Counted from the whole stretch's first letter, positions 19,301 to 58,339 are shown. The stretch: 63,522 nucleotides of DNA, filler included, from Folioceros fuciformis (GCA_049999805.1; 6 parts of 6 records of this genome joined end to end with filler, not necessarily neighbours in it); one strand, 5' to 3'. The notes: a model not told the origin generated them from the sequence alone. Numbers and translations: made by a program.

Positions 19301-22300
19301 CATGCGTAGTGGTGCGAGTATCAAGATCATAGATTTTGTACCCCTTGATACCTTCAGTATAGCCAACGAACACATATTTTTGAGCTTTATAATCCAGCTT
19401 GACTCGTTGGTCCTCTACCGAGTGAGCATAGGCTAGAGCGCCAAAGACTCTGAGATGATTAATACGGGGCTTATGTGATGTCCACCTTTCATATGGAGTA
19501 GCACCACTGAAGGCCTTTGTTGGAAGGCGCATTTTTATATAATTTGCAATTGCAACAGCTTCTGCCCAATATCCCCTGGACAAGCCGGATACCTTGAGCA
19601 AGGATTTTGCAGCTTGTTGCAGATGCTTGTTGTTAACTTCCGCCAGCGGGTTTTGTGCTGAGGTATAAGGGATAGTTATTTGGCGAGCAATGCCAAGTGA
19701 ACGACAATAGCTGTCGAACTCTTCTGAGCAATACTCGCCTCCACCATCACTCCGTAAGGTTTTCACCAATTTTCCTGTCTACCTTTGTCCAAAAGTCACG
19801 TACTCCTGGAAGAAGCCTAGTGTTTGACTCTTGTTTTTGATGAAGTAGGTGATGGTGTACCGACTCCAATCGTCCACGAAGGATAATATATATTTGGCTC
19901 CTCCAAGAGATGTAGTGGACATGGGGCCACATAAATCAGAGTGCACCACCTCGAGCAGCTTGGTAGCCCTGGTTGGGTTAGAGTCGTAGAATGGTAGCTG
20001 CTGATGTTTTCCAAAACCACATGCCTCACAGAACTGTTTTTTCAATAGACTTGAGCAAGAATTTTTCACGATAAAGTGTGTTATTTGCCACCATAGCTTT
20101 GATCTTGTCAAAGTTAGCATGCCCTAGTCTATAGTGCCATAGCATCGACTACTGATCCCTCAAGGCTGCTTGACTTACTTGTACAGTTGGTGGTGGCAGC
20201 CCAAACTTGGAGGTAAAATCTAAAGCATACAAGTCATTTATGGGCTTACCTATAGCTAGTGTCTTAGACTTATATTGAGGGTCAGTGATGAGACTGTCAA
20301 GGTCTATGAATGTTATGGCTAGGCCATGCTGTTTCTGGAATTTACTAACTGACACTAAATTTTTGACCATTACAGGTACGTGAAAGACATCCATCAGGTT
20401 GATGGTGCTCCTGCTTATTAGTAACACGAGCACTGTGCCCACTCCAGCTATAGTAAGGCCTCTATCATCCCCTAAGAGAACCTCCTACCCATGTGGCATT
20501 TTTGTATAGTGCAGAAAAGATTGCTGATTGCGGCAAATATGTGTTGACGCACATGAATCCAGGTACCACACATCATTGACTTGTGCTGTAGCAACCATAA
20601 ATACTGCAAGTATGGTGTTCTTTCTCTGCATCAGGTTGCTTTCTACTGCAGGTGCAACCCGACGAGGCTCATTTGCCTTCTTTTTCCGACATTCGGATTC
20701 AAAATGACCTGGTATTAAACACCAGTTGCAAGGGCCCTTCTTTTTAGAAGGAGCAGCCCCTAGACACTTCTTAGTTATAGAACTTTTGGTGTTAGTCCAA
20801 GGTTGCCGAGGTGGTGGCCTTCTAGGGCCTCTCTACGTGTAGAGAACCATGTTTGAGGCCTCTCCTTTGTGGGAGGTGCCACCTCGAATTGCATTCCTTG
20901 TTGCCTCTTCCTCGAGAAGGGCACCAACCAGGACAGATAGCATCACAGCTGGGGTCTGGCTTGCAGGAGTTGAATTTTGTACTATTTGAAGCGTTGAACT
21001 GTAGCTGCTCACAAAAGTCCTGTAACTTTCAGGCAGGGAAAGAAGTAAGGCGATTGCAGCTTGCATTTCTGATGTTGTTGTTCCGCTGGATGTCAATTTG
21101 GATCAAAGTGTCCTGAATTTGGTGACATGAGCCTCAATGGTGTCTGATTCCTTCATTTTGCAGGTGTAGAAGGATCAAGTAGCAGTCACCATTGAAGTAC
21201 CATTTACTACCTGGTAAGCTTGGGTTAATGCATCCCAGACGTCCTTGGTTGTAGCTGCATCTCGGGTGTAATCCATCATCGATCCATCTAGTGCAGCTTG
21301 GATCACACCAAGGGCTTGCAAATCCTTTTTGTTCCAACCGTCTTTTTCTGCTTGAGTTGCAGCAATTGCAGGTTTTGGCTGTGCACTAGTTACAACCTCC
21401 CACAGGTCATGCTCTCTAAGGATGGTTTTGACTCGGAGAGCCTAGATGTCGAACTAGGTACCTGAGAACCTATCGTTTTCCTTAAACTCAATTTTTAGAT
21501 TGTGTACTGTGGTATTGTGATTTATTGTACCAGCTGCTTGGCCTTGTGCCATGTTGTGCACAACTTGTGCCACTAACGCAGCTCGGGTAGCTTGGGCAAG
21601 TTGTGGAGCCCTAGTGGCTGCTTGCTGATGTTTGGCGGCTTGATGTAGTTGTGCTAGGTGTAGGTGGGCATCTATCAAGGCTTGGGGAATACCAGGTCCA
21701 CTTGTCTGACCTGTTTCCTCAATAACAGGTTCCTAAAACAGGAAGAGAGGGTCAACATGTATAGGTACATCAGGGTTTGGTCCCTCCTCTGGAGAGCCTC
21801 TCCCTCGCCTAGTGCCTCCTGCTCGACCACTTCCTCTGCCACGGCCTGGTTGGTTATGAGACCCACGACCTCTGCCGAACATCAGTACACCCTCGTGTGG
21901 TCACCTTGCAGCCATCACTTCTGCCCTTGGCTAGAGGTACATTCAAGAAAAGACTCCAGCTTCTAGACAAGTAAATCTAATTTGATGTCTAAGGCTATGA
22001 CTTTGTTAGAAAGGTCTGTAATTTTTATTTGTGTTTGACAGCCTACTGTTTTTATGAGGCCGAAGGTTTCTACAAGCAGCTGACTAGTGGGAGAGGGAAA
22101 AGAAGTAAGATGGTCAGTACATTCACTGCAAAGAATCGATTTATTCTTGGTCAAGACCTGTGATCTAAGGACAAAAATTTGTTGTGCCTTATTTACCTCT
22201 TCTCTAACTTGCCTTCTTCGACGCGCTAGGAGATCTGGCTTGGGCTGTTGTACCTGACTATGCCCAGTGTTGTGCTGATTTGTGAAGATAGGTTTTACAG

Positions 22301-22859
22301 TGTGCGAGAAGATATGATTGAGATTCTTGTGCTGTTTTTGGATTGAATGACCTAGATAACTAGCGAATGGATCAGCAGACAAATTTGGCCTCCTACCTCT
22401 ACCTCTCAGCATGGCGTCTATCAAGAATAGTAATGAAAAACAGCCTCTGCCAGGAAGGTGTCTGCCATTCCCCAAAAACTGATTAGTTCCTTTCTCAAGG
22501 AGTTTATGAGAATGCGAAAATGCTCATGCGGCAGCAATTGAATACAATTCTTGTTGTCACAGACTAGGCAGTGATTGGAGGACATAGCAGGGTCCATGAC
22601 TCTGATACCATATAGATCAGGCTAGGATCGAATGCTTAGAAGAGATTGAACGCAAAGATGATGTTATTGAGCGCACGCTCCTCTTAAAGAAGGAGGTGGC
22701 GGTTGGCCGCGTCCCGTCGTGGGGATGACGATTGGTTTTTAGGGTAAGACGTTTAGTTGCGCCCCTTACATTTGGGACACATCGTTTTATGTGACGGTTC
22801 GTTAATTAAATTTCTTATTGCCTATGTAATGACTACTTAAATAGCTCCTATTTTCCATA
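16375..22859 (-). mobile_element. Copia element B, full length with both 249-bp LTRs (16375-16623, 22611-22859), TA..TA termini
   Basis: LTRs differ at about 13/249 positions by eye. TSD TGTGC/CGTGC. PBS at 22599-22610; PPT at ~16624-16630. Gag, PR (WYLDS), INT, RT (YVDD) and RNase H (KHIDIKHHFIR) all present with stops/frameshifts. Confidence 0.95.
21915..22412 (-). pseudogene. Accessory ORF upstream of gag in element B (~165 aa; one internal TAG)
   Basis: ATG at 22412 (MLRGRGRR), CSEC motif, heptad-like C-terminus; in-frame TGA overlaps the gag ATG as TGATG (21917-21913). Confidence 0.55.
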
Positions 22860-25800
22860 CGTGCCTCCTGACCATCCAGGAAATCAACATGTGGGTCTGC
22901 AGCATTCTCATCACCAGCAACATCATTGTCCAGGCCTTGTAACAGATCTTCTCCATCAGAGTCTGGATAATCAGCTGGTTGTTGAATAATATGTTGTGGT
23001 GGAATTGCTGCAGGCACAGCATGTTCTACAGCTTCAGCAAAGAGATCTAGGCCTGAGCTATCATCCTTATCACACACTTGTGGATCAAAATCATTCATGA
23101 CAGGTATGGTAATTCCAAAATAAGTCTTCAAGCCCTTTTGAGGTGACAAAAGCTCGTCAAAGGTAACACTACGGGCTAACACCACTTTCCTGGTTGCTAG
23201 TTCATATAACTTATATGCCTTAGACATCTCAGAGTAACCAAGAAACAATAAGGGCCTAGCCCTATCATCCAACTTACGTTGTTTATGTTTAGGTAGATAC
23301 GCATAAGCTGTGAAACCAAATACTCGCAGGTGCAAAAGACTTGGTTTCTTCTTCCAAAAGGCCTCGTAAGGAGTTTTACAAGGTACATTGGTTGTCAACA
23401 CTTTGTTCAGGATATAAGTAGTTGTTGTAAGGGCCTCTGCCCAATAGTGTTTAGGCAGTCCTGCCCATCCTAGCATGCTTCTTGTCATGCTCATTAATGT
23501 CTGGTTCTTACGCTCAGCTACCCCGTTCTGCTGTTGTGTATATGGAATCGAGAGCTGTCTTATGATCCCATGGGCTTCAAACAGCGCATCATACTGGTGT
23601 CCAACGAACTCACCTCCGTTGTCAGTGCGAAAGCACTTCACCAGATTTCCAGTCTATCTTTGTATCATAGCAATCCAGTTCTCAACAGACTCAAAAGCAT
23701 CACTCTTGAGGCAAAGTGTGTACACCCAAGTGTAACGTGAATAATCATCTGTTAGTGTCAGGTAATACTCCGCCCCTCCTAGTGACTTAACTTGTAGTTT
23801 GCCTGCAATATCAGCATGGACAAGTTCTAACACTGCATTTGCCCTCTGTGCCTGTTTATTTTTGAAGGGAAGTTCCTTCTGCTTCGAAATAACACAGGAC
23901 TAACAAACCGGGAGGTGCTTAAAGCAAGGGGGAAGTTTTTCCCTAAAGCAATCTAAAGAAGCTATCAGGTTCAACTTCTCTCTGTTAACATGTCCAAGCC
24001 TTGCATGCCACAAGTTTGCTTCAGATATAGTGGAGGTAACATATGCTTCTGGTTCAGCAGAATTATGTAGCTGGTACAATTCATTAACTAGTTTTCCTCT
24101 AGCTATGCACCTACCAGGTCTAGAGAGATCATAAAGACAACAATGACCTTACACATATGAGATGTGGCCCCTGAGTCTATGAACCAAGAAGGCCGAATCA
24201 GCAGAAGAAGACAGACGAACTGATGTTACAGTTAAAACTGTCGAATTGCTCTTGTGTGGAGTAGGCCCCTTGTCCTTTGCAGCAACATGTGCCTCCAGGC
24301 GAGGGTCCTTCTTAGGTTCGCCAGCCTTCTTCTTGCAACAGTCCCGCTCCCAATGGCCGGGTATTTGACACCAATTGCAATTGCCTTGTCGTTTGATGGA
24401 GGGAGTTGAGGAAGTCAAGCCACCAAAGGTATGTCCTGTTTGGTGAGATTTCTTATCCTTCCCCTTCCCGTTTGCAAACGACTTGCCTTTTGCTGCAAAC
24501 AGGACTTTTTCGCTTTTAGAACGAGCTCCTTCACCTGGTCTGTGTCTACTAGCCTCCTCTTGCAGGAGAGCTCCGACCACAGTATTCAAGTTGAGAGAGT
24601 AGGCCTGATTAGCAGCGGCAGCAGCATATGCTACAGTGAGTGCCGAATTTTGTCCAGAAATGAAGGTCTGGTAAGATGAGGGAAGCACAGTATACAGTTG
24701 GGCAACCATCTCGACCTCGCTAATCTTGACCCCTAGCGAAGCAAGTTGTGCTCGCAGTAGTCTCCGCTTGGTGATGCCAGGGCCAACAGGTTCCCCTTCT
24801 CGCATCCTGAATGATTGAAAGTCACTCATAACATGCATAAGGGTGCAAACATTCTGCACCTGATAAGTATCCTTGAGTTGAGTCCAGATTTGAGCTGCTG
24901 TTTCGAGGAACTCAGTAACTGTTGTCGCATTCAATCCTAAAAACAATATTGCAAATGCCACCTTATTTCCTTTGTCCCACTTGAGAATCTCATCTGTTGT
25001 GGGTTGGATTGCTGTTGTGGTAAGTATCTTGTGAGGATACTCACAAGATGTGTGGTTAATCCTCACATACTCCCACACATCTCTAGCATTCATGTTTGCC
25101 TTCATTTGTGCCCTCCAACTTTCATAATTTACAGGCTTGCCATCAAATCGGTCTTTTTCCTTGAACTCACAAGAGTATGACACCGTGCTAGTGGTGACTG
25201 TAGATGCAGCCATATTAAACACAGAGACAACTCCTGAAGTAACAAGATATGATGGAAGGATGAAGGCAAGGAACTGTGCCTGCAGGGATTGTAGAAAAGA
25301 GAACTTTGTGGCTAAGTCCTCGTCGATGTCACTCTATCTGAATCTTCAAACAGCCAGTTTAAGCCAAAAGACATGGACTTAAAGTGAAACGACATTTATG
25401 AAAGGTATGTCCCGTTTCTAAGTTAGCTGTTTTAGGTTTAGATATGAAAAGTCATAAAATAACGTGAAACGATGCAGGTGAACATGAGCACACGACAGGT
25501 GGCAGGACTCCTCAACCGTCGACCTGAGCAAAAGTGCTGGTTGAGATATGGCTGAACACCGTTGGCACTGCGCCTGCTACACCCACCCTGGCGATCCCCC
25601 TCCCAAGCTGAAGATGGGATCCTGAGTCAAGGCACACGGCGCCCCTATAGATCTGATCGCCCACACGGTGACGCCATTGCAGGCTCTTCTCGTGTAGGCA
25701 CCAAGCTTGGCAGGTAGGTTGCAACCCGGGGAGATCTTGCAGAAACAGATCCAACTTCAGCACGCTCCAACCTCAAGGTGAGGGCTGAGAGGGAATTTTA

Positions 25801-26689
25801 TACACTCTGAAGCAGATCATGCATCGTTGTCAGTCGTTCTCCCTGTTGTAGAAGCAATGAATGTCCTCTGCAGACTTCTGAGAGAAGAGTCTCATTTGTA
25901 CTGGTAACTCTGTTGCACAATGCTTTAAGTCTAAGCTTAGCCAATTCATTCCAGTTAGTGAATCTTCTCTCAAATTCTGTTGAGGGATCTAGTGGCCTGT
26001 TTGAAAAACTTTTCTAGGTGTTGCAGGGACACGGAGATGATCTTCGCTGGGATCCACTCTCCGGAAGAGGAGAGGGAGCCCTTTCTCCCAAGTTGAGTTG
26101 ATGAGATCTTCTCTCTGGAAGAGGAGATGTCCAGCCTAGAGGATTTGTCCAACTGTGACGTTGGCCTTGTGGAGGCGCACAACGCCGGCTAACTTGGTGC
26201 TCAACTTGTTGTGGACGATTCCTGTTCTGTCTACTCACAAATTGTGAGAGACCATCATTAGGACGTTGCCCACGTCTCCGCGTCATTCTGCAAAATCAAC
26301 AGACTCATTTACAATCCCATTTAGTTTAGAGTGCAATATCTAACAATATCTAGAGTGCAGGCAGAGATAAATTTCTGGTCACACAATCTCACATTTTCTA
26401 AGAAAGAAATTTTGTGCATTATGTAAACAGCTAAATTAACTATGTGCATTATGTGAACAGCTAAATTAACTATGCTAGCACAATTCTAGAATAGATTGAA
26501 TATAGCTGGTGCTCTGATACCATGCTACTAATTGCGGAAGTGAACTTTGTATATAAACATTAGAATAATATTAAAGGAAAGCATCCTTAAATACAAAATT
26601 GTGTGTGTGACTTTTGGGTTAATTAACTAACCTCTAGTTAAACTAAGCTATAAGCTATGTTAGGGTTTTATATCCAACACTAAGCCTGT

Positions 26690-27043
26690 AGGCCGGCGGT
26701 TAAGGACCGGTCTTATGAGGATATGTGCGAGTCCATGGAATCTAGGTTTGACAACCTAGTCTCCACGCTGGTGTTGGACATTGACCTCAAGGCTACACTA
26801 GCTGAGGCTAGCGCAATTGCGACAGAGTTGCCTGACATCTATGACTATGTAGCGCCTTGCTTCCCTCCGAAGTATGAAATTTTCCAGCTCATTGTGCAGC
26901 TGTACACTAAGACGTTCATCCAGATGCTTAGGAAGCTTGGAGACCAGGCCAAGGACTTGTCGAACTTAGAGATCTTGAAGGTGACGGCGTGGGTGGTGCA
27001 GTATCAGGTGCAGTTAGGGAACCTCGGGATCGAGTGCAGCTGA
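26690..27043 (+). pseudogene. SEC6: Intronless internal fragment of exocyst subunit SEC6
   Basis: RFDNL..DLKATL.EA..I..EL.DIYDYVAPCFPPKYEIFQL.VQLYT..FIQMLR.L.D.A.DL.NLEILKVT.WVV.YQ matches the plant SEC6 core; both ends are missing. Confidence 0.85.
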
Positions 27044-28328
27044 GTGCTCGCACAACAGTATAATGGCTTATTGGCTGGATGGAGAAGGAAATCCCTTGGA
27101 GGCCGGATTCATAGCGGAGGTGGGGCACGTCCTCGCTCATCTACTTGGATAACATTGCAGAGAACATAGCTCATTTCATCGACAAGGAGATCATGCTACT
27201 GGCTATGAACAACGCCAGCATCTCGGGACTCACTTTGCCGGAAGACAGGCTCAACATCCTCGAGGGCATCCAACGTGGCTATGGCAACGTGATCGCCATC
27301 TAGAATAGGGGTTACGAGTACGATATGTGGCCTCCCGTGGACTCTACCGACCTGAGTGCGTATCTCAACATTCTAGAGATTTGGCGAAACCGGGAGGGGA
27401 TTGCGCACTTGCCGATCGTGTCCCTGAGAGTGTCAGACTTCCACATCGATGAGCTCCTAGAGCAGTTGTGCGCCTTGTTTCAGGGCAAGCTGGCAGAGGA
27501 GGAGCTCAAGCTCACAATGCCCATGCCGGAGAGGGGGCAACAGGCGATCAAGGGGAGACGCGTGGATCCGGTCCGCCCCATGAATCCACAGAGCCTGGCC
27601 ACAACAAGCTCGTCTTCGGCATGGATCAAGTGTCTAGGAAATTGTTGCTCGAGCTCGATTCTGGGAATGGGAAGCCTAGGGCGCTCTGCCTCAACTTTGA
27701 CTCCGCTGATCCGCCTGAGCCGTTGACGTCGTGTGGCACTAGCGCAGTGTCCTCTCCACTAGGAAGACACTACATTTGCTCTTGCCAGAATGGTGTGGAG
27801 GGACGAGGTGCAAAATATTGCTTGTTAGGAGATTGAGGAGGTGGATTGCGCGGCAGCGCTGGGAGAAATGGCAGTAGAGCGGAGACACGGTGCATCGCAG
27901 CTGCACTTGGAGGCAGCAGTGTACGGAAGGCGTGTGTCCCTGTTGAGGCATTCGAGGAAAGCCTACTCCGCGCCAGAGGTGCGAAGGCGGAGCTTCCAAC
28001 CAAGCGCGAGCACAGTTGCGGTGCGAGATCTGCCTACTCTGCAAAGCTACTCTGTTCGATTGGCTTGTGTCGAAACTGGGGCTATCGGAGGTGGAGGGAG
28101 ATTCTGTGTGGCGTCCTGGATCAGCAGCCAGGAATTTAGCCTCATGCTGGCGAATGTGATCTACCTCGAGGCCATCCGGTTCCAAGGCAACCACAGATCG
28201 TGACTCATGCTATCGACACATCGAGTTGCGGATCGCGAAGATGGAGAAGTCATGCTGGCGATTCGAGGTGCTACACCCCGTTGTGGTTGCCAGTGCTGCA
28301 ACCTCGCCATTGGCGAGGTGATCCTCGG

Positions 28329-31300
28329 TGTTGCAGATAATTACAATATATATAATATATTAGTTATATATTGGGTTATACCTAAAACGAAAGGGTAAAC
28401 CTTAAATACAATTATGTAACGTTTCACGGGTAGAGGTACATGCCCCTGACCTCCAGCATATCCAAGGCAGTCCTTGTTGCAATATTTGGTGCGCGTTGAG
28501 ATCGATCTGAGAATTCGTCTGTGCATTCCAAAAACTTAACTTGGTATCAGAGCCGCGAGGCTGGTTCCTTGATGCGCACATGGCAATCGTTTTTATACTC
28601 TATTAATTATGACACAATGTTGGGGTTCTTGGACCCGCTAGCCAAGTAATCCTTAGGTCTCTCTAGAAGGATGCCTCGCAAAAATTTTTGCGCGCAATCC
28701 TGGCTAGAGACAGAAGGCAGAAGGGCGCGCCAGTTGACTGATTCGGAATTGGAAAGGAGGTACTTCAAGAAGTCTTCATCCGATGCAGAGAAAGCAGATA
28801 GGACCCAGTTCATGAGCACTTTCCTTGACTCTTTTGCCTTAGCCTCTAACAGTCATAAATGCGCAGCCTGTGATAAACCTGTACCAAGAGATAAGGGAGT
28901 ACTGTTCTATCGATCATCTGGCACTGAATACATAAAGAAATCGAAGCCTCAACCTGAGACGTTTTCAAAGCAGGAAGTAATTCTTAATTCAATTCTAAAT
29001 ATTAAGAGTACAGTTTTGGAATACACTACCAGGATTGATAACATGTTGTCCAGGCAAGAGAAACTTGAGAGCCTTCGTGTTTTAGACATGATGGCACTTG
29101 CGAAACAGGAGCAGGAGATTATTGAACTCAGAGAGCAATTAGCTCACCTGTCTAAAGCCTCCTAAGAACTTTTGCCGAGGTGGCTCGCAGGCACAATGTC
29201 GCATGCTAGTGCTGACACATCATCAGACAGGCTGCAAGAAAAGGACAGACTCACCCCGAATAATTATGATGCCTGGAGTTTCAGGGTGCGTTGCATCCTA
29301 GAAGAAAAACTGCTCATGGATATCGTAGATGGTACTTTACCTAAGAAGGTTGCTGGAATGCCCTCTGGTTTGACAACAATAGGAGGCACAGTTAAGAATT
29401 GGAACTTAAAGGACGAACTAGAGTGGGTGTCCAAGGACAGGAAGGCACGTACCATACTTGTGTCTTCTATCTCACAGGAGATGATCCCTCATAAAACTGA
29501 CCCAGTCCTCAAACGAACTCTGGTCACTTTTATCAGAGACTTATGAGTCAAAAGACATGATGACTGAGGTAGCTGCAACACTGCACTTCTAGAATCTTCG
29601 CATGAAGGAGACCAACTCTGTTGAGAGTCATGTTGCTAAGTTTAGGGCTACAAGAGCCAAACTAGCATCTTACGGAATCATCCTGTTTGAGTCTAGGGCT
29701 GCTGTACAGCTCCTAGCCTCACTCCCTCCCAGTTATGAGCAGTTCAATTCCAATCAGCAAGCAACAACAATTGTAGTTCCTGCCAATGCCACTCAGCCTG
29801 CAGCATCAAATCTCACTGTTGAGAAAGTTGTTGGGGCCCTATTACAGGCTGAAGCCAATAGAAAACACATGCAAAAGGGAGCATCCTCTAGTTCTTACAA
29901 GTAGAGTGGCACTGCCCTTTATTCTGTCAGAGGTCGAGGTAGAGGCAGGGGATGTGGACGTGGTGGCACAGGGGGTTTGGGAAGAGGATGTTGATAGACC
30001 TTCCAGCCCAACTCAAACTCCTCTTCATCAACCAAGCCTGGTAACTGCAATTACCATAACAAACTAGGACATTGGGTTAAAGACTGTAGGAAGAGAATCA
30101 GAGACGAAGCAGCGAAAGGCAAGCACACATCAGAATCAAATACAGCCAGAGCAAGCACATCTGGTTTACTGGTGGCGTACCTTACCTCATCAAAAAAAGG
30201 ATGTCAGAAGTGATTCCTTGATAGTGGGGCCTCGAACCACATGTGTTCAAAGAGAAAGTCATTTCTTACTTATGAGTCTTCCCTCGCGTGCCATCAAACT
30301 GCAGTAGTATTGGGAGATGATTCTACAATACCCATCAGGGGTTCTGGAACTATATAGATTACCTTGAAGGATGGCAGTTTCCTGCTTTTAGAAAATGCTT
30401 TACATGTTCCAGCAATTGCTAAGAATTTGGTTAGTACAATGGCACTTGGAAAGACAAATCAATACAAGATAACTTTTGAAAGCACAGAATGTTACATTTC
30501 GAGGCTATAAGCTCCAACTGTGCCCATTGCACGAGGAAAGCCACTCTTTGATCTCTATCTTATGGATTTTATATTAGATGTACCTCAATTGTCTGCAACT
30601 GCATCAAGTGCATCAGCTCCAAACAAAGTTAGCTATGAGTGCCTTTAAGTGGCATTGTAGGTTATGGCATCCAAATATCAAAGCTATGCGAAGACTGCTG
30701 AAAGAGAAGATGGTTACTGAACTTCTTCATCAAAAGAGTCAGGTCTTCGATAGCTTCAAAAGATACCTAGCATATGCAGAGAGGCAGACTGGACTAAAGC
30801 TAAAATGTATACGTTCTGATAAAGCAAAGGAGTATTTATCTAAGGCCTTCCAAGAATTCTGTCAGGAGAGGGGGATCACTTGTCAACTCACCATACCATA
30901 TCATTCATACATGAATGGACGTGCAGAAAGGAGATATAGGGCTATTCAAGATTCTACCATGGCACTTCTCTTTCAGGAGAGGTTACCAATTCGCTTCTGG
31001 GCAGAAGCTGTACAAGCAGCAACGTACCTACAGAATAGGATAGCAGTCTCCTCTCTTCAACATTGTACTCCATTTGAAGCCTGGACTGGCAGTAAGCCTG
31101 ATCTGTCGCACCTTCGTGTCTTTGGTAGTACAGCCTATGCACATATTCCAGACAAGCTGCGTCAGAAGTTTTCCTTTAAGTCCAAGAGACATATTTTCAT
31201 AGGCTACACTCCTGGGATACATGGTTATAATTTGTTTGAACCCTACACACATCAAGTCATTCATGCTCATACTGTAGCCTTTGATGAACGCCCTGTCCTT

Positions 31301-31826: not shown

Positions 31827-31974
31827 TGTTAAGCATGATTAATGTTGATATTAATTAGTGCTAATCCAGCTTATTGTTTTTGTACTAATTAGTGGTAAGA
31901 GTGATTAAGGTTATGATTAATATATATATATATATATATAGCTTATTAGACTTTGCTATGTTAGGCAAAAAAAA
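31827..31974 (+). mobile_element. 5' part of LTR family X, running into a gap
   Basis: TGTTAAGCATGATTAATGTTGA.. matches 13033 onward. Confidence 0.9.
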
Positions 31975-32074
31975 NNNNNNNNNNNNNNNNNNNNNNNNNN
32001 NNNNNNNNNNNNNNNNNNTTAATTAATTAANNNNNNNNNNNNNNNNNNNNNNNNNNNNNNNNNNNNNNNNNNNN

Positions 32075-35000
32075 AAGCTAAATACGTTTGAAAACATGAT
32101 AGGGCTTCACTCTTATGGGCAAGAACAAAAACTGTAGAATAGCGGCTCCATTCATCAATGAAAGTGATGAAATAAGATGCTCCACCAAAGGACATGGTCG
32201 ACATGGGGCCACATATGTCACTATGGACAGTGTGAAGAAGACAAGGTGCTCTTGACAAGTTTTGGTCTTTGAAAGGTTGTGAAATTGCCTTGCTCAATTG
32301 ACAGGAGTCACAAAAGGCTCTATTATCAAAAGAGAGACAAAGGATCTCTAAAAACGGAGTTATTGACTAAAGTGAAAAGCCTATTAAAATTCACATGCCC
32401 TAATCGGCAATGCCAAAGTTGAGTAGGAGAGAGACCAGAAGCTTGGGTAACGTTAGCAGTAGCATGTGGACTATACAAGGTTCTCACATTCAAAAGATAC
32501 AAATCATGGAAAGGTGTCCCTGTGAAAAGGTCAGTTCCAATGTTGTTGCCAATAACTGAACAACCTGTATTGTCAAAACAAACTCTACAAGAGTGCTCCT
32601 CCGTGAGCTTCATAACTGACATGAGATTCTTGGTCATGGATGGGACAAACAACACATCTGAGATTGTAAGAGAGGAACTACTAGGAAGCTGTATCTTTAC
32701 TGATCCTATACCCTTAATGGATAAACCACTGTCATCACCTAAAAGAACAAACTGGTGATGAGCTGGGTTAGCATCAAAAGCAGTGAAAGCATTCCTATCA
32801 AAACAAATGTGGCTAGTTGCCCCAGAGTCGAGGAACCACATGTCATTCTGGATCTGGATAGAAGATAAGCAAACTGCTAAGATGGCGGGTGGTTTGGGCA
32901 GACCTTTGGACGTGGCTACATTAGAAGCTGGAAAGGAACTTGAACTTTCCTTCCGGGGCTCACCAGCCCTTTTCTTCCTACAGTCCTTCTCAAAATGACC
33001 TGGTATCTTGCACCAATTGCAAGTAAAAGTATGCCGTTGAAGGTTGGGCTGTCGAGAGGTTGACGCTCCTCCTCGTACTGAGCCCCCACGTCCTCTGCCA
33101 CGATTGCCTCCGCGTCCTCTAGAAGCAAACAAAACTCTGCTACCTTGTTGCATAGTAGGCTTGGACTTGTGAAGGCTCCTACGGCGTTCTTCAGCAATCA
33201 AAGCTCCAAATATCTGCTCCAACGTCACATTGGCGCCAGGTCCAGCTGCTTGAAGAGTTGCATTCTGAGAACTGATAAACTGAGAATAACTATCAGGCAG
33301 GGATGCTAGAAAGGAAACAGCAGCTTGAAACTCAGTGAAGGTAGTCCCGCAATATGCAAGAGTCGCACGAGCTGTGCGAAATTTATTGATATAAGACTCA
33401 ACAGTCTCATTATCCTTCATGCGAATATTGAAAAAATCCCGATGCGCTAAAACAAGGGAAACAGAACTCTTATCTCTATAGATGAGTTTGAAGTTGTTCC
33501 AAACTGCTGCTGAAGTGTCAGCATCCATAGTGTGCGGCATCATGTTCCTGTCAAGGGATGCCAAAAGGATGGATCGGGCTCGCCTGTCCTTCCTTTGCCA
33601 TGCAAGAATATCAGCAGCATTTGCATTGTTGGCATGTGTTGCTGGTTTTGGTTCTGTCCCGTCCACAACGGACATGAGCTCATGCTCCTCCAAAATCTGG
33701 GTCAGCCTCATCGCCCAGATGTGGTAATCATTACCATTAAAGCGATCCCTATCCTTGAATTCAATCTTCAAGGAACCTGGAGTGATCGCCATAGCTTGTG
33801 CAAAATTTGCAGCTTGACCAGTAGAAACTCCAACTCCAGCAGCAGGGTTGCCTGCTGTACCTGCAAGGGTGCTTGCGGAACCAGCAGGGTTGCCTGCTGT
33901 AGGAGAAGGAACACTACCTAAGCCTGGCCTAGGCTGTGTGGGATTGCCCCAAAAATTTCTCAAATAGTCAAAAGAGGGAGATGTGCCTTGCTGTTCATCA
34001 ATACCAGTTGTGGGATTGACAACAGGTGAAGTAGGTTCCTCTTGCAACTCCAATCTACCAAGGTCCACATCTTCGCCTTCATTAAATTCGCCAGACGCTG
34101 ATGAGGGCGAACCTGGCTGCATGTCCAATATTCAAATATTAAGAGCGGGGCGCACGTGGGCGTCCCGGTGAAAATAACCTAGCCTCATGCACACGCTTCT
34201 CCTCTTCAGTTGGAGTAGACAGCAAAAATAATTGTTGAATTCCAGTTAGAAGAATAGAGAGAAAATCTTGTAAATTATGGATCTGATGAGATGCTTCCCT
34301 CAAATCAGCTTCAAGTTGTCGTTGTAGAAAACTACGAGAAAATAATGAAGGTGAATGATGAACAGGGCCTCGATTGGAAATACGTCTAATAAAACGTTGT
34401 GGTTGGCTGCTCATAAAATGTTGTTGAAAGGTTCTTTCACAAGACGCCTTCAACTTGCAATCTAAACAAAAGAAGCCACGATCTGATCTGGGTGGCGGTG
34501 ATGGTGGTGAGGCTTGAGGGTGAACTCTCCTCCACTGCGCACAAGAAGATGTCCTGCGCTTAGGCATCTTCATCCGCGTCTCAGCATCATCAATTATAGC
34601 AACATTGACAACTTGCTGTGTCTTTCACACGCCGCAGGCCATGGCTCCAAGCAATCGTGATGAAGCATGAAAATCGAAGGCACTCCTGCCCAGCATGTGA
34701 CACCGGCCGCGAGGCGCATCCATCCACCGCCCGGCTACAAAACCTGGTTGTAAACACTCCGAAGTGGTGAAAATCAAAACTGGTCATGGCCGCAGTGGTG
34801 CCGACAGCGCCGCGATGGGGCTGCCATCTGCTCCCCTGCGCGGCTCCAAATCAGCGTTATAATGTCCTGAATCCTCAGACCGTGAGCGCCTCAGAATTTG
34901 CAATCGATCTCAAACATCTATGACGCTCCTGCCAAGAACTTCACACCGGGCCACGAAACGCCGCAATCCGTGTACCCTGCCAAACCAGAAAACTGCATCG

Positions 35001-39850: not shown

Positions 39851-39869
39851 TGAAAGAGTGCATATCTAG

Positions 39870-40650
39870 CCCACTAAATTAGGCATAGGGTTTGGGACGT
39901 TTCGTAAAAGACATAAAGACAGTTTCTGTTGTAAGCTACTTCAACTATGAAAAGCATTATGCGCAAGTCTCGTACGATTTTTTGCTTTGTCACTTGGTAT
40001 CAGAGCCGGTAGATGTGTGGGCTCCGAATGTCCATGATCTCTGGATGCCTGACTTAAAAAATGCCTAGAAGACGGAGAGGCGCACGGTGCGTGGCCCCTC
40101 CCATTTCTCAGCTGCCAAAGGACCAATCCTATAACAATTCTCACAGGAATTCGGCGCCTCCACAGCGTGATCAAGGGAGGGTCAGTACCCATCGAAATTG
40201 GGTACCCCGCGCTAGGGAACAGGGCAGGACAGGTCTCTCTGAAATTCTTAGTGAAAGGAGACAGTTTCTGCGTTGGGGTCGGTCTCATGCTTCTTTGGTC
40301 CAGTAAAGGCGTGAGCTTTGAAGTGCTTCGCTCACTCAGTGACCCTGCATGATTTGCAATGTATTGTGCCTGAGCTAGGAGTGGAGTGGCCTCAGTGTGA
40401 CTCCAATAAACCAGAAGACGAAAGAAACCTTTGAAGAGCAAAGATGGCCTTCCAGCTACGGAAATTCTGCAGAGAAAATCCCAAAACTTGATCAATTCTA
40501 TTCTACCTAATGTAACGCGTGGGGCTTCCAAAGAACGTGATACTTGTCGTCCTGTTTGAGGGATATAGAACTGTACATGGCGAGGAAGCCCGCTCTTATC
40601 CGGGTAACCTCAATTGAGATCCCACACCTGTAAAACTGCGCCATTTGCTT
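39870..40650 (+). mobile_element. Copia-type element G remnant: partial LTR, PBS-Met and leader ORF only
   Basis: ...TGTCACT|TGGTATCAGAGCC at 39995; ORF MPRRRRG from 40061; no gag before the P450 stop. Confidence 0.6.
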
Positions 40651-40654
40651 TGGT

Positions 40655-42736
40655 TTAATAGATATGGAGCGGCAGGCGAGGGGTTGGGACTGCTTTGAGG
40701 TGGTGCTTCCTTGGAACAGTAAGTCCAAAGGTATCAGACATGTCTAGGTCTTCTGGTTTCTGTCCGTGTGAAAGAGACCAGTCGAAGCTGTGGATCAGTT
40801 TAGCGATGAGGGAGGTGGCTACGGTAAAGCCAAGAGAACTTGCAGGGCACATCCTTCTGCCGCTCCCAAACGGAATCATATTGAAATTCTGCCCTTTGAT
40901 GTCAATCTCTCTGTTGCACAACGCAGCAGCCAGAACACTAACGTCAAGGTTGCAACAAAGGGAAGTTTAAAATCACAAGTTTGCAAAGCAATTCGCAACC
41001 ACATAACATTGTGAATGAACGTAGTACCTTTCGATGAATCTATCTGGTCGGAACTGGAGGGGACTATCCCAAGCTTCTGGGCTTTTGTGAAGATTCAGCA
41101 AGCTGAGGAAGATGGTGGTGTTCGCAGGAATGTCGTAGCCCCCAAGCTTGCAGTCTTGCATGGAGTAATGTGGGATAAGAAGGGGAGCGGGAGGATGCAG
41201 CCGCAGCGTCTCCTTCAGAATAGCTTGAATGTACTGGAGATCAGCGAGATCTGATTCGACCAATAGACGATCCTTCCCGACGACGGAGTCCAGCTCTTGC
41301 TGTGCCTTCTGCATCACGGACGGGTTCCTGAGCAGTTCTGACAAAGCCCATTCTGCCACGATGGCAGACGTCTCGGCCCCAGCAAGCACCAAGTCCTGCG
41401 ATCACCGCTCGGCGCAAACACACAGACTAAGACCACAAACACACAGTCACACACACATTGTCTCGAGTGTACAAGAGCAGCATCATGGTCAGGGGATCTT
41501 TCGGTTTGTCGTCCTACCGTCAAAATCCCTTTCATGGATAGATCTTTGTCAACTCCTTTCTCCCCGGGAAGGTTGAGCAGTACCTCCAGGAAGTCATTGG
41601 GTGAGGAGGTAGTGGATTGGCTCATTCGCTGCCTGTGGTTATCTATGATTTGGGATAGAAAGTTGTTAAGCCTGCTCCTGGACTTCTGCATGCTCCTGAC
41701 AGTGAAAGTGTCCAGAAAACTCAGGAAGCGAATGCTGTCTCCCATCACTGGGATCCCGAGCAACCGGTTCATCTCACCGATCAGCGACAGATACTCAGCT
41801 GCTTCCTTTGAATTGACCTGTACAGTGCGCACCATAGATAAACATATCTGCACGCTTGTAACTGCAGTTCTAAGCAGGACATGAATGCTCCAGACTGGAG
41901 CATAAAATTACGGGTTAACATATTGAATTTCCACCATGACTGCGTCCAAGTACGATAGAAGGACGTAACGGTCTGGAGCTAACCATGGCGCCGTGTCTTC
42001 CAATCTGCTCCCCATGCTCGAACTCACAGAAGCGCTTGTTCATCAACATCCGCGTCATGTTGTTCATGGTCACCGTGATGGCCAGTTCGTGGATGTCGAC
42101 CTCTTTCCCACTGTTGTGCAGCACAGATCTCATGGCAGCATCCAGTTCTTGGCGTCTGGATTCCTCGAATCGCTGCGTTCGTTTGGGAGTCAACAGCTCT
42201 GTCACCATAACCTTCCTGAAATCCGTGAACCATGGCGATCATTACATCATTGTGAGCACCACTCTGAGAGCAAGACCAGGTTAAGCTTGCCAAATCTCTG
42301 ATCGTGCGGCCACCATTGACCAGTGACAGGCTTACCTCACGTATTGGTGCCTGGGTCCGAGGGGTTGAAATCCGCACGTTCCTTCCCGGAAAACCAGATG
42401 ATGGAAGGCTGTGAAGGTAGGACGGGATGCGAAATTGTTGTCCTGCACTTTCATCATCTCTTTAGCCATGTCGGCGGATGAGACAACCACAGCCAGCTTT
42501 GAGCCCATGCGGATGGACATGACCGGACCGAACTCGTTGGCCAGCTCCTCCAGGCGGGCGTGCGGACGGGGATGGGAGAAAATGGAGAGGTTTCCCACCA
42601 GTGGCCATGCCGGCGGGCCCGGTGGAAGGCGATACTTCCTTGCTCCGCTGCTGGACCACTGGCGTGCTTGAGTCGCAATGTGGGCAACCGCCCACAATCC
42701 CGCTACCACAAGCAGGACTGCATCAATCCAGTCCAT
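40655..42736 (-). CDS. Cytochrome P450, CYP71 clan (A-type), 5 exons
   Basis: Exons 42736-42336, 42215-42028, ~41860/41818-41518, 41395-41028, 40910-40655. Membrane anchor plus LPPGP, I-helix AGAETS, ETLRLHPP, FRPDRF, heme motif PFGSGRRMCPA. The exon 2/3 junction is ambiguous. Confidence 0.9.
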
Positions 42737-43959
42737 AATGTGACAACTTCTTGTTTTTCAAGGGCAGCAAGTCACCGTGCAATCCAAGGCTCTTCCAAGC
42801 TGGCTCCGTGTCCTAGGCCTGCACTCCCTGATGCTATGAGCCCGAATTCGACCAGCGAAGATGTCACACACCCGGCGCGGCTCCTTTGCAATACGTCAAT
42901 TCCGTGATTTGCCTTGGCTAGCATCGGGGGGAAGGAGGGGTGGCAGCCTCAGGGAAAATTGCCTGGACATCGAAGCAACGCATGTTATAAGCATCCAGGG
43001 GAGTTTCGAAACTGCGTAGCCGATGAGCAGCTGGTTTCGCCTCATCTCAAGGCGAACGATGGCATCCATGTGCTGCGAGTATTGAGGATGTGGCGGGGCA
43101 GTAGCCAGGCTGGCCTCGTCCTCTGCAGCATCTTACATCTCGGAAGATCCTTCCTTGTTGTCTCTCCCCATGTCGTGGGCCCCGGTTCACAGCATCTTGC
43201 AGGAGAGTGAAGTTCAAGTGCACAGTGGAACGCCAGTCTGATGAGAGACGCTCTGATATCGACATTGCAGCGGAGATCATCAGTACCTGCCGGTACCCTG
43301 ATTCCTTGGCAACACTTATCTGAACTCGGTAATGCTGCACAAGTGCTCCTTTCCACCCAATGCAAGCCATGTTCTCAGATGCCATTCACATAACGTTCCC
43401 TGTGCCTTGGATCGTCTTCCCAGGAAAAAGATGCCGCGTCCAAGTGTCGCTCTGGAACCTGACGCCATGGGCTCGGTATTAGCAACTGGAGCTCGCACTG
43501 ACACGGATTGGCATTAAATGCTTGCCAAAGATACATGTGGACGACGAGGGAGGACTCTAGTTACGCATTATGTCCTACACAGACGGTCCTAATAGCTAAG
43601 TTTGTACGCAAATCAAAGCCCCGCCCAAAGTGAAAAGAGCGAAGACATATCAGAGATTCAACCACTTAATTCTTCTGGTTAAATTATTAAATTAATAAGA
43701 ATGCTTGCTTATGTCGTATTGTGAAACAACACTAGCCCGAAACGGCACGATGAAACCCTACCCTTAGCTGTTGCGTTTTATAGATGCCTCCTCACACTCC
43801 CACTCAGCAATAGGCACACAAAGTTTTGCTTTGGAAAATATTATTGTGTGGCTGTTGACTTTGCTTCCTCAATTGTTAGCTTGATTATGTCATTGCCATG
43901 AATTGCTCCAAGTCCTTTTTTTATGTTTATTATGTTTATAAGGAGGAACATGAAGACTT

Positions 43960-44590: not shown

Positions 44591-45075
44591 GAAGCCACCC
44601 TTCTTGTTTATAAGTAGGAAGATACTTAATAAATATATAGGTAGTATTATTCTCAGTATTTATATAAGCAACTATCATCACTCCTCTACAAGTAATATCA
44701 CTTATGTAATGATGATATCGGGTATTTTCTATGATTGAAAAAGAGATGGAAAGTCCCATCTACTCTATGTCAATAGGATCGACTCCAGTCTACGTGCAAG
44801 TGTAGGAGAGGAGAGGAGAGAAGAGAGGGTGGTATTGGTGATCACAACCATGAAAACAATACACATCACCACTGTCTTACTATGGAGGTCCGAGGTCTCC
44901 ATTTAAGTAGTACATTTAGGGCTACACAACTTCCAGGTTCAATATGGGATAATCTACACTATCCTAAGTTCACTANNNNNNNNNNNNNNNNNNNNNNNNN
45001 NNNNNNNNNNNNNNNNNNNTTAATTAATTAANNNNNNNNNNNNNNNNNNNNNNNNNNNNNNNNNNNNNNNNNNNN

Positions 45076-46581: not shown

Positions 46582-47521
46582 ATGGATCCACTGTCCCAAT
46601 ATTGCATGTTGGCAATACAACTAGCACTTGTCCCAAGCGCATCTGGGCTACAAGTTTCAGCGATTCCTAGGCTTCAAAACCAGAATGTGGTTGCATGGAC
46701 AGGAGACAGCACTCATGCTCTCATCTCGACATACGAGTAGGTGTATGTCAACCATCTTCAGAAAGGGAACCTTGCCTCCCACCACTAGGATGCTATTGCA
46801 CTCAGGATTTTGTCCTCTTGCATGGGATTTGTGCCAACAAGTCTGCAATGTCGCAACAAAATGGACTCCCTCAAGAAGCACTATAAGCAAGAGACCAAAA
46901 AGCTTAGCACGAGAGTGTATGCTTCTAAGTGGGCTTTTTGGGAAGCCCTGCATTCCTTCATGTCAAACAAGCCAAAGGTGGTAGGAATGCCTAACTCGCA
47001 TGACCCAGGCTTTGTGGATTTAACTGAAACGCATCTTTGTGAAGGTGTGACATCTGGGATGTCTGAAGGTGTGTGTGAGTCATCACACACTCACAACCCA
47101 CCAGCAAGCTCCTCTCCTGCCTCTTCTCCTCCTCCTACATCCCCACCCTCTACAACTCCTACTAGGGGCCCTACTCCTCCTTCTACATCCAAGGATAATC
47201 ACTCTTGTGATTCACCTTTCACTCAAGTGACAAAGCTCAAAGTTGTTGCAGCAAAGAGGGTCTCCAAGCAAGCCAAAAGGAAGCTCTCAGGTGCTGGGAT
47301 AGACAAGATAGCTGAATCAATCAATATGGGCAAGAGTTGAAGCTGTGAAGCAAGGAAACCTTCAAAGTATGGAGAGAGGAAGGTTGGAGAGCCTTCAAAA
47401 CATGGAGAAAACAAGGCTAGAGCAGAGCATGAAGGTTGTTGAACTCCAACAATTCACGCAAATAGAGCTAGCCAAGCTCTTGGTACAATCATTCAAGCGC
47501 CCAAGGCAGGAGGAGGAGTGA
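46582..47521 (+). pseudogene. PIF/Harbinger ORF1, Myb/SANT (trihelix-like) DNA-binding protein
   Basis: AWTGDSTHALI..Y..LQKGNL..H(W)DAIA..QCRNKMDSLKKHYK..WAFWEAL; internal TAG stops; charged C-terminus. Confidence 0.8.
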
Positions 47522-47596
47522 TACATCAAGGGGTTCCAGCACTTGTCATAACTTATAGTTTGTGCTAGCTATAATATTATAAGGTTTCACCATAAC

Positions 47597-48235
47597 TCCA
47601 AGTGCCATTCAGTCCCAAAATACGACTCACCTCGAAAAGAGCTACATACCATTAGAATCTGCTCTTTGATCTCTACAAGCTTGTGTTTTCACTTTTTCAT
47701 TTGAATGAAAGATGACCTTTGAAACAGCTCCGAAATTGCAGACTTCCAAATAGTTTCTTAAGTTTTAAGCAGACCTTCAACTGCCATTCAGTCCCAACGT
47801 ACGACTAATCTCGAAACGAGCTATATACCATTAGAATCCTCTCATTGTGCTCTACAAATTTGTGTTGTTAGTTTCTCATTCGGATGATCGATGACGCCTG
47901 AAACAGCTCTGAAATTGCATACTTCCAAATAGTTTTTTAAGTTCTGAGCAAAACTTCAAGTGTCATTCAGTCCCAACGTACGGTTAATCTCAAAACGGGC
48001 TATATAGCATTAAAATTCCCTCATTGAGATCTACAAGCTTGTGGTGTCAATTTTTCATTGGAATGAACGATGACATCTGAAACAGCTCCGAAATTGCAAA
48101 CTTCCAAATAGTTTTTAAAGTCTTGAGCAAAACTTCAAGTGCCATTCAGTCCCAGTGTACAGTTAATCTCGAAATGAGCTATATGCCATTGGAATCAGCT
48201 TGTTTACCTCTACAAGCTTGTATTCTCACTTTTGG
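47597..48235. repeat. 179-bp tandem repeat x3.6 between the Harbinger ORFs
   Basis: TTCAAGTGCCATTCAGTCCCA-like unit starts at 47597, 47776, 47955 and 48134. Confidence 0.9.
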
Positions 48236-48335
48236 ATTTTAATAAGAGACTTCTTTCAAAAACAACAAATGCGCTTGCTGACTTATTCACTTATTTGTGC
48301 AACAAAGTACATCACTCAAGCACATAAATGCAACA

Positions 48336-49221
48336 CTATTGTTCTTGTCTTTGTCTACACCAATGCTTGACCAAGGCATTGTATTGAACTAGTGCAATAC
48401 TCTTCATATCCTCTTCCTCCGCACTTGTTAAGATAACAGGAACATGTGGTACAGGATACTCGTCCACCCCTGGTTCTGAAGGTTCTAGCTCACCAGCCAC
48501 AATGCAAAAGTTGTGCAAAACACAACAAGCAGCCACTGTCTTCGCGGCATATTTCACGCGGACATTGAGGTTCTTCAATATTCTCCACTTGTTTTTTAAT
48601 AAGGAGAAAGCATTCTGAATGACAACTCGTCTCGAAGAAAAGAAAGAGTTGAATGCTCTTTGCTCTGCATTCATAGACATTTTGAAGCCTTTCATAAGAA
48701 AAGGTCTCAAAGGATACGCGGAGTCACCAATGATGTAAGGAGGTACTAGAACTCCCTCCACTTCAATGATTGGCCCTTCAAATATCTGTCTAATGATAAG
48801 GCGATACCATAAGCTACTATTCCAGAGAATACCAGCATCATTTGAACCTCCTGGACTATTAGCACATATATCAATCAACATCTTCTGCTTGTCACATATA
48901 GCTTGCACAACCATGTAATGCATATTGTATTATTTGCAGTAATAAGCTGTTGGAGTGTATTGCTCAGCTGGTTTGGAGGCAAACTTGATAAGGGATCCAT
49001 CTATAGCACCAACAACATTACGCAATAAGGTCCGCTGCTCAAATGCTGTTGATATGTCAACTTGGCGACGAACTGATGGAATCGTGATAAATGAAGAATA
49101 TAGCTTGGCAGGGTCACTTAAGATGGAAACAATGAGCTTAGTATACTCAACAAGTGTGGCATCACCAACACCATATTTCGAAGCAACGGTGAGGGAAGGT
49201 AGACCCTTGCCAAGCCTATTG
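48336..49221 (-). pseudogene. PIF/Harbinger DDE transposase (HARBI1-like), 5' end interrupted by copia E
   Basis: VVGAIDGS, QAICD..PGGSNDA, YIIGDSAYPL, R.VIQNAFSLLKNKWRIL, ACCVLHNF. Confidence 0.92.
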
Positions 49222-53255: not shown

Positions 53256-53355
53256 NNNNNNNNNNNNNNNNNNNNNNNNNNNNNNNNNNNNNNNNNNNNT
53301 TAATTAATTAANNNNNNNNNNNNNNNNNNNNNNNNNNNNNNNNNNNNNNNNNNNN

Positions 53356-57733: not shown

Positions 57734-58339
57734 TCATGCAAACTGGCTACGTGTTGTGCTTCTTTCTCTGTTATTTGCTGTTTTCTCAAAGTGAACAGCA
57801 AATGTGCGGAACTCTGGATTTCTCAAAAGCTCTGGCTTCAGGAGGACATGCAACTTGTAGTCCAAGTGATGGAACTGCTCCCTCAAGTTATGTAAGTCCA
57901 CACTCACGCTGGCCACGCTTTTGATGAGGTTCACAAATCTTTTGTCTACAAACAAGGCATGTGATTCCACCCTAGAAATGATCTGTGTAATTGTGGCCTG
58001 TGGTGCAGGCTGTGTAGTGAGAAAACCGTTAGGGTTCCCGTAGGTGTTTAGAGCAATTCTGGGGTGCAAGTTCTGATGATCAGCACCTATGGCCAGCTCT
58101 TGAGGAACAACACTTAGGTTTTGGTAATTAAGATAGAGAGTTGAAACCAGCAAATCATAGGCCTCGAGTAGGCGATTGCTGTACGCAGGTCTGTCCTGGT
58201 TTCTGTGAATCCAATCTTGTGTGTGTTGGTGAATTCGTTTTGCTACATTCCTGTCGTTGAGCTGTCCTCTTGCTGAACGATTCCGCTGAACGTGCTCAGC
58301 AGGCCGAGGTTGCCAAATATGGCCCTCGTTGTAAGCCAT
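57734..58339 (-). CDS. Accessory ORF upstream of gag in element F (201 aa, intact)
   Basis: ATG-to-TGA open frame between PBS and gag; heptad-like C-terminal half (VSVDLHNLREQFHHLDYKL). Confidence 0.6.
   Translation of the reverse strand: MAYNEGHIWQPRPAEHVQRNRSARGQLNDRNVAKRIHQHTQDWIHRNQDRPAYSNRLLEAYDLLVSTLYLNYQNLSVVPQELAIGADHQNLHPRIALNTYGNPNGFLTTQPAPQATITQIISRVESHALFVDKRFVNLIKSVASVSVDLHNLREQFHHLDYKLHVLLKPELLRNPEFRTFAVHFEKTANNRERSTTRSQFA

Follow-up and report, generated by a model that had tools for sequence, protein, structure and literature searches.

Additional open reading frames (ORFs) in the long terminal repeat (LTR) retrotransposons of plants lie mostly 3' of pol, and Vicient and Casacuberta, in the available text of their paper, define them as frames that all or most copies of a family possess and that are conserved like the other proteins of the element (PMC7264820). 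At the 5' end, the accessible parts of the sources describe two cases in Ty3/gypsy elements: the Ogre element Mtr70 of Medicago has a 1527-bp ORF upstream of GAG (PMC2533021), and rice Retrosat2 has an ORF0 between its 5' LTR and the retrotransposase ORF, absent from other organisms (PMC3485330; PMC4093653). In a survey of 5410 copia elements, extra ORFs counted only from 250 codons upwards, and the text available names only the 3' ORF of SIRE as characteristic of a copia group; its supplementary tables might list 5' copia ORFs (PMC6317226). Because of that cut-off, ORFs of 145-200 codons would escape this, the largest survey. Plant copia elements are regarded as uniform, consisting of gag-pol alone except for the 3' env-like ORF of SIRE. 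Here we analyse a 63,522-nucleotide stretch of DNA from Folioceros fuciformis (GCA_049999805.1; six parts of six records joined end to end with filler), hereafter the window, in which several copia elements carry a sense ORF, here called ORF0, between their primer-binding site (PBS) and gag. An earlier sequence-only reading of this DNA placed the known extra ORFs 3' of pol in Sireviruses or 5' of gag in gypsy Ogre. In the literature searched, as far as the texts were accessible, we likewise met 5' extra ORFs in gypsy elements alone (Ogre and Retrosat2) and 3' ORFs in copia of the SIRE type, and in the open-access literature that we searched we found no report of a 5' extra ORF in copia. We judge it somewhat probable, on the evidence of this one window, that ORF0 is a real, separate, fast-evolving accessory cistron that active copies carry in several deeply diverged copia families.

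Six copia 5' regions (elements A, B, C, D, F and G) have an ORF0 or its remnant, and the leader from PBS to gag ATG measures 654-1521 nt. The sense ORF that had been noticed just before gag in B, C, D and F was found where it had been placed, with a length of 144-201 amino acids (aa), and the two versions reported as degraded, which begin at 26286 in A and at 40061 in G, are both broken by in-frame stops:

21963 to 22412, minus strand: element B ORF0, 149 aa, start MLRGRGRRPN, CxxC at residue 95; P = 0.002 against shuffles; gag ATG at 21882
28671 to 29165, plus strand: element C ORF0, 164 aa, start MPRKNFCAQSW, CxxC at residue 64, long C-terminal helix; P < 0.0005; gag ATG at 29196
34139 to 34573, minus strand: element D ORF0, 144 aa, start MKMPKRRTSSCAQW, CxxC, in another frame than gag; P = 0.06; ends 16 nt before the gag ATG
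57734 to 58339, minus strand: element F ORF0, 201 aa, no Cys, non-basic start MAYNEGH; P < 0.0005; gag ATG at 57628
25798 to 26286, minus strand: element A ORF0 remnant, start MTRRRGQRPN, in-frame stops at 26016-26014 (codon 91) and 25800-25798 (codon 163)
40061 to 40306, plus strand: element G ORF0 remnant, start MPRRRRGARC, 81 aa to the first stop, in-frame stops at codons 82, 87 and 94

For B, the span first proposed was 22412-21915; its start stands, but an in-frame TAG at 21965-21963 already closes the frame. The gap between the ORF0 stop and the gag ATG is 16 nt in D, 30 nt in C, 78 nt in B and 105 nt in F. The P values compare the longest sense ATG-initiated ORF of each leader with those of 2000 dinucleotide shuffles of the same leader, gag having been identified by Pfam Retrotran_gag_2/DUF4219; they are low for B (0.002) and for C and F (each below 0.0005), and the longest ATG-initiated ORF of the A leader is unexceptional by the same measure (P = 0.14). 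Antisense ORFs are short in four of the five leaders (39-77 aa) and reach 99 aa in D. The ORF0s are genuine and non-random, lie in the sense orientation and always just ahead of gag, and occur in several deeply diverged copia families.

That these are copia elements, and separate families, follows from a survey of the window with Pfam on all 146 stop-to-stop frames of at least 90 codons, a self-comparison and a PBS search, which together reveal a nest of Ty1/copia elements. The domains Retrotran_gag_2, DUF4219, Pol_BBD, gag_pre-integrs, rve, SH3_retrovirus and RVT_2 occur in this order in B and F and in part in A, C and D, and all reverse transcriptase (RT) matches are to RVT_2, with the integrase ahead of the RT, as opposed to the Ty3/gypsy arrangement (RT before integrase, RVT_1). 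Elements A, C, D and G match the PBS of the initiator tRNA-Met (tRNA-iMet) type exactly, B with one mismatch and F with two; within two mismatches the motif occurs 15 times in the window versus 5.9 expected. Element B has a 250-bp LTR pair, 94.8% identical, with the PBS directly adjoining, and the other elements are truncated, with no LTR pairs visible. The self-comparison found no DNA similarity between elements, and pairwise identity is 50-54% in RT (54% for A versus B), 37-55% in integrase and 27-47% in gag, which upholds the earlier view of them as separate families. A three-frame comparison of the leaders matched only the gag starts.

Among the ORF0s themselves, A and B form the sole significant pair (Smith-Waterman z 3.8, equalled by 1 of 300 shuffles). 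Their N-terminal 16-mers are each other's first-ranked match among the 1222 ATG-initiated peptides of the window, with a score of 37 where the next is 20. The first ten residues (MTRRRGQRPN and MLRGRGRRPN) agree at seven positions and the underlying 30 bases at only 15, the Arg, Gly and Pro codons differing synonymously, so that the start is kept as protein and not as DNA. The A/B start is the one direct sign of protein-level conservation of ORF0. The start similarities of G with D, C with D and G with A rank merely in the top 1-4%, F has no similar start among the other ORF0s, and homology among the C, D, F and G ORF0s is not detectable.

Codon usage was scored as log-odds trained on Pfam-supported copia frames, with leave-one-out and 107 other frames as the null, and separates copia coding frames (0.08 ± 0.05) only moderately from null frames (-0.068 ± 0.088); of the ORF0s, C (0.077) and F (0.044) lie inside the copia coding range. 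The observation that ORF0 stays open in elements whose gag-pol is broken is true but does not go beyond chance. We counted no fewer than nine gag-pol breaks over 5.26 kb of B, four over 2.63 kb of C and seven over 4.23 kb of F (one per 584-658 nt or denser), and at such densities the chance of an intact ORF0 is ~0.46, ~0.47 and ~0.37, respectively (joint ~0.08); the frames of A and G did break. Since neutral decay predicts the same, an open ORF0 in a broken copy carries no weight for selection, and its survival implies just that ORF0 was open in transposing copies. Other copies were taken from contigs of two DNA runs of the same organism, for which the indels listed are part of the full tables. 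In the B family, a contig of 805 nt shows 40 substitutions, and the sole indel listed for it within ORF0 inserts 6 nt in frame; two contigs over the C ORF0 have, among the rows listed, deletions that are not multiples of three. The one possible RNA run matches only 26640-28419 and covers none of the A, B and C leaders. That interval, which separates A from C, is a patchwork of gene fragments, among them a Sec6 exocyst piece at 26684-27040; the fragments each match a different contig of the possible RNA run at <90% identity, one exact 1079-nt contig spans 27246-28324, and the whole looks like captured or pseudogenised host gene pieces.

The predicted proteins share a general character, which we compared with 58 other ORFs of at least 100 aa in the window. 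Their isoelectric points are 9.1-12.0. The starts, described earlier as mostly basic, are so in five of six (A, B, C, D and G) and not in F (MAYNEGH), and four of six (A, B, D and G) have an N-terminal net charge of +3 to +5, versus 0.48 ± 1.9 in the null set. A CxxC motif, as previously noted, occurs in three (B, C and D, out of six), which is weak evidence because 17% of the 58 other ORFs have one too. A crude count of a/d heptad positions over the last 80 residues gives 0.6 for A, 0.5 for B, 0.6 for C, 0.8 for D and 0.85 for F, versus 0.32 ± 0.23 in the null set, and 0.6 or more is reached by four of these five (A, C, D and F) versus 8.6% of null ORFs. On this crude score the heptad-like C-terminal helices first noted in the four readable ORF0s would hold for C, D and F, with B at 0.5; a confident AlphaFold2 helix was obtained only for C. 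Modelled without an alignment, the C protein has a disordered front followed by a 64-residue helix at residues 100-163, with a block-mean predicted local distance difference test score (pLDDT) of 79-97. A two-copy complex prediction of C residues 95-164 scored 0.22 against a mark of 0.32 and is counted neither way. No shared fold emerged from the AlphaFold2 models of C and F.

The leader of plant pararetroviruses, which contains a tRNA-Met primer site, offers a point of reference for how such a frame might be read. In the available text of the source, this leader is long and rich in short ORFs and is adjoined by a first ORF (ORF VII of cauliflower mosaic virus (CaMV), ORF I/II of rice tungro bacilliform virus (RTBV)), and downstream ORFs are reached via reinitiation or by leaky scanning through AUG-free ORFs (PMC5902531). 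Of the layouts that we know, this one comes closest. In the window, the stretch from the ORF0 ATG to the gag ATG holds 29 ATGs versus 43 expected from shuffles, with all five elements below expectation; the corresponding counts are 50 versus 53.8 ahead of ORF0 and 191 versus 161 in gag-pol. The start context of ORF0, with a purine at -3 in five of six and a G at +4 in one of six, is moderate and would permit leaky scanning, going by the summary for plant pararetroviruses in PMC5902531. In A, B and C a pyrimidine-rich YAG lies close before the ORF0 ATG, its end 1-6 nt away; under 10 of the 12 threshold settings it is found in three of the six versus a background of 2-13% (P from 1e-4 to 0.03), and under the other two in one of six (P 0.11-0.17). 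Because this test is post hoc and threshold-sensitive, we keep the idea of a splice acceptor as a lead only; a YAG before ORF0 would fit a spliced RNA from which the upstream AUGs are removed. One leader stands out by its predicted folding:

58340 to 58728, minus strand: element F leader before ORF0, strongly structured RNA, minimum free energy -118.2 kcal/mol, 100 shuffles giving -83.9 ± 5.3 kcal/mol (z -6.5)

The F leader folds as one long interrupted stem, which may be an inverted repeat that was inserted there, or else a structure for packaging or of shunt-like type. As a general trait, a shunt-like leader structure was ruled out, with z at -1.3 in A, -0.9 in B, +0.1 in C and +0.65 in D, and only F at -6.5.

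Several results weigh against our reading of ORF0 as an accessory cistron, and some of them would suit an alternative that we regard as unlikely, namely that the leaders are non-coding, their long frames arising as side effects of demands on the RNA (a structure for packaging or dimerisation, composition, or the avoidance of AUGs for scanning), with no ORF0 protein made. The B, D and F ORF0s have no homologues among near-length proteins of a library of 5.8 billion, and an any-length phmmer search of 1.84 billion representatives with C returned none but one spurious match, a tandem-repeat protein that we rejected and that hits the Glu/Gln-rich helix 15 times. None of the six ORF0s matches Pfam at E <= 5, the sequence matches in PDB (a designer PPR protein, LTV1 at E 0.01 and others) were judged compositional, and the Atlas look-alikes, PHD-type clusters for C (0.82) and unnamed plant clusters for F (0.78), have low recognition, below the useful level. 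Fourteen of the 15 ORF0 pairs show no significant similarity (Smith-Waterman with shuffles), and the AlphaFold2 model of F is of low confidence throughout (mean pLDDT 39). ORF0 is never the first AUG, with four ATGs between PBS and ORF0 in B and in C, five in A, eight in F and 29 in D, and 3-11 ATGs per element are left between the ORF0 and gag starts. The D ORF0 is just marginal against shuffles (P = 0.06), and the D leader holds a 144-codon antisense frame; the codon scores of B (0.009) and D (-0.004) are intermediate and no better than ~20% of null ORFs. The strong structure of the F leader likewise fits a non-coding leader, but just one of five pre-ORF0 leaders is more structured than its shuffles, and neither AUG avoidance nor RNA structure clears stops from one frame over 450-600 nt. 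Moreover, the B, C and F frames beat all or nearly all of 2000 composition-matched shuffles, and the start shared by A and B is kept as protein while its codons differ.

It is highly improbable, in our estimate, that ORF0 is a former N-terminus of Gag, once joined to it in one long ORF or by read-through or a frameshift and then split by decay in old copies. ORF0 and gag do share a frame in C and F, a single TAA and 10 codons separate them in C, and the Gags of B and D already have long, variable, disordered N-terminal regions; yet a shared frame in two of five elements equals the chance expectation. In D, the only element with an intact gag-protease (598 aa, with its own ATG), ORF0 lies in a different frame and the gag frame is closed upstream of its ATG, so a programmed shift from ORF0 would meet a stop. 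The 105-nt spacer of F contains three in-frame stops versus ~0.2 predicted from its decay rate (at least seven breaks in 4.23 kb), every gag possesses an ATG a short way upstream of the conserved gag start motif, and no fused ORF0-gag form appeared in the any-length phmmer search with C. The C ORF0-gag read-through and the gag alignment gave no related loci in metagenome contigs, nor did the gag alignment in viral contigs. We judge ORF0 to be separate from gag and no decayed Gag extension, the separating stops being original. A further explanation, that the ORF0s are unrelated and were acquired independently, as transduced host or foreign fragments or as de novo frames whose likeness is convergent or coincidental, strikes us as distinctly unlikely. 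It accords with the dissimilarity of 14 of the 15 pairs, with the lack of a basic start or Cys in F, and with the capture of gene fragments by LTR elements, documented in the available text of PMC7264820, but A and B clearly share a start, the position beside gag is constant, and no host-gene or transposable-element homologue of any ORF0 emerged from the searches. Because gag itself is only 27-47% identical between families, an ORF0 of common origin that evolves faster would be expected to be unalignable. As an observation apart, a third stop in the B ORF0 frame, the TGA within 21880-21884 (minus strand), overlaps the gag ATG as TGATG; if the B stops at 21965-21963 and 21917-21915 represent decay, ORF0 and gag would have a stop-start overlap as in termination-reinitiation, in this one of the five elements only.

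On the reading that we favour, in which ORF0 is an accessory gene, it would be a cistron in its own right, placed after the PBS-proximal leader and ahead of gag. Its predicted product would be small (about 145-215 aa), basic and mostly disordered, in most cases with an Arg-rich start and in some with a CxxC, would end in an amphipathic, possibly coiled-coil helix, and would evolve much faster than gag or pol. We propose that this protein is made from the element RNA and acts as a nucleic-acid-binding accessory factor, which in layout would parallel the first post-leader ORF of plant pararetroviruses and in composition the basic coiled-coil proteins of retroelements. Since the stretch from ORF0 to gag is AUG-poor, gag may be reached by scanning past or through ORF0, and ORF0 might itself be translated from a spliced RNA without the AUG-rich part of the leader. 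The earlier reading conjectured a lineage-wide ORF0 that would serve as a nuclear regulator, an anti-silencing factor or a capsid partner. A bolder version, to which we attach little credence, would make ORF0 an ancient, fast-evolving accessory gene in a whole set of copia families of this plant lineage, encoding an Arg-rich, helix-tailed RNA-binding protein that is translated from spliced or shunted RNA and controls the fate of the element RNA (export, packaging, protection from silencing), with gag reached, as in plant pararetroviruses, through an AUG-poor cistron; were this regulatory role real, these copia would be 'complex' retroelements. A recurrent 5' cistron, if real, would add an accessory gene to the copia repertoire, pose the problem of translating two cistrons from a single LTR-element RNA, and provide a candidate element-encoded factor for RNA handling or counter-silencing.

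The elements to which these leaders belong are laid out as follows:

26511 to 26522, minus strand: element A PBS, tRNA-iMet type, exact match to TGGTATCAGAGC
24149 to 25213, minus strand: element A gag ORF, 354 aa counted from its ATG (25213), Pfam Retrotran_gag_2 and DUF4219
25213-24149 (gag), 23653-22805 (integrase) and 16227-15601 (RT), minus strand: element A, split by the insertion of B
22611 to 22860, minus strand: element B 5' LTR, partner at 16375-16624, 94.8% identical
22599 to 22610, minus strand: element B PBS, one mismatch to the tRNA-iMet PBS, adjoining the LTR end
Element B as a whole, minus strand: complete, LTRs of 250 bp, coding region broken
28542 to 28553, plus strand: element C PBS, exact match
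Element C as a whole, plus strand: cut at ~31827 by a high-copy repeat
35632 to 35643, minus strand: element D PBS, exact match, immediately after the LTR end
32326 to 34122, minus strand: element D gag-protease ORF, open without a break over 598 aa that begin at its own ATG, then a masked block; Pfam Retrotran_gag_2, Pol_BBD and gag_pre-integrs
58729 to 58740, minus strand: element F PBS-like site, two mismatches
Element F as a whole, minus strand: gag to RT present, broken
39995 to 40006, plus strand: element G PBS, exact match
Element G as a whole, plus strand: 5' stump only, ending before gag, beside a P450 gene region

Five masked blocks (31975-32074, 39452-39551, 44976-45075, 53256-53355 and 60211-60310), each of two runs of 44 N with 12 bases between, conceal the 3' side of D, the 5' flank of G and the E/F junction. 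The repeat that truncates C, at 31827-31974, is one of four copies 90-96% alike (with 1-221, 13033-13451 and 63124-63522), and its bin word depth of 5483 and 12718 in the DNA runs, versus ~10-150 elsewhere, marks it as very high-copy. Adjoining the G stump, cytochrome P450 coding pieces at 40658-42757 (minus strand; five frames in profile order) represent an intron-containing gene or a pseudogene. A copia pol has its C-terminal end at 60311-60480 (plus strand), and less than 500 nt further on come a TATA-like box (~60865) and a gag start at ATG 60976, the latter with a weak Retrotran_gag_3 match (E 0.005); the region 60311-61200 has no tRNA-iMet PBS and no space for an ORF0, so either not all copia here carry the extra ORF or this one is a recombinant. 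Elsewhere in the window, parts of a PIF/Harbinger-type transposon at 46789-48929 comprise a Myb/SANT-like ORF (46789-47337, plus strand) and a DDE_Tnp_4 transposase fragment (48339-48929, minus strand), beside which lies a 179-bp tandem repeat (47571-48228). An 850-codon open frame at 3894-6443 (minus strand), whose Ser/Pro/Gly/Gln-rich low-complexity product has no Pfam match, is probably a large host-gene exon for a disordered protein. Fragments of Plant_tran/DDE_Tnp_4, Myb/SANT, P450 and Sec6 are among the Pfam matches of the window and suggest a plant host. A scan of the window against Rfam yielded no families, and it contains no tRNA genes.

LINE-1 ORF1p and the Rex and Rev proteins of human T-lymphotropic virus (HTLV) and human immunodeficiency virus (HIV) are small and basic, have one arginine-rich segment and one that is helical or oligomerising, and bind the RNA of their own element. 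With these the ORF0 products have a functional analogy only, as no sequence or fold similarity and no ORF1p-like RNA recognition motif (RRM) or C-terminal domain (CTD) was found. The pregenomic RNA of pararetroviruses is matched in layout by the tRNA-iMet PBS, the AUG-rich leader and the AUG-poor stretch from ORF0 to gag, a likeness for which no homology is claimed; unlike in pararetroviruses, AUG depletion here is partial (29 versus 43), only the F leader is strongly structured and there is no transactivator gene. With the env-like ORF of SIRE (Sirevirus), the only well-described extra ORF in plant copia, as characterised in the accessible text of PMC6317226, ORF0 has in common that it is an additional, heterogeneous and fast-evolving ORF of plant copia, but the SIRE ORF lies 3' of pol and was scored at 250 codons or more whereas ORF0 lies 5' of gag. 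In the complete element B, the ~0.6 kb from the RNase H region to the 3' LTR has a longest sense frame of 129 codons (16748-17134), too short for an ORF of the SIRE kind; the 3' parts of the other elements are missing. Retrosat2, as far as its description was available, differs in being a single gypsy family with LTRs longer than 3 kb, where the ORF0s described here belong to several copia families with short LTRs (250 bp in B). Ogre, a plant LTR retrotransposon of the Tat lineage of Ty3/gypsy, likewise has a sense extra ORF between the 5' LTR/PBS and gag; in the portion of the source available, its primer is tRNA-Arg (PMC2533021), versus tRNA-iMet here, its ORF1 is about three times longer, and the elements of the window are copia by their RVT_2, their integrase before RT and their copia-type gag. 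The likeness to Ogre and Retrosat2 is one of layout, drawn from their descriptions. In an arrangement not described for copia in the literature searched, the 5' cistron would be a variation on the known theme of extra ORFs carried by plant LTR retrotransposons.

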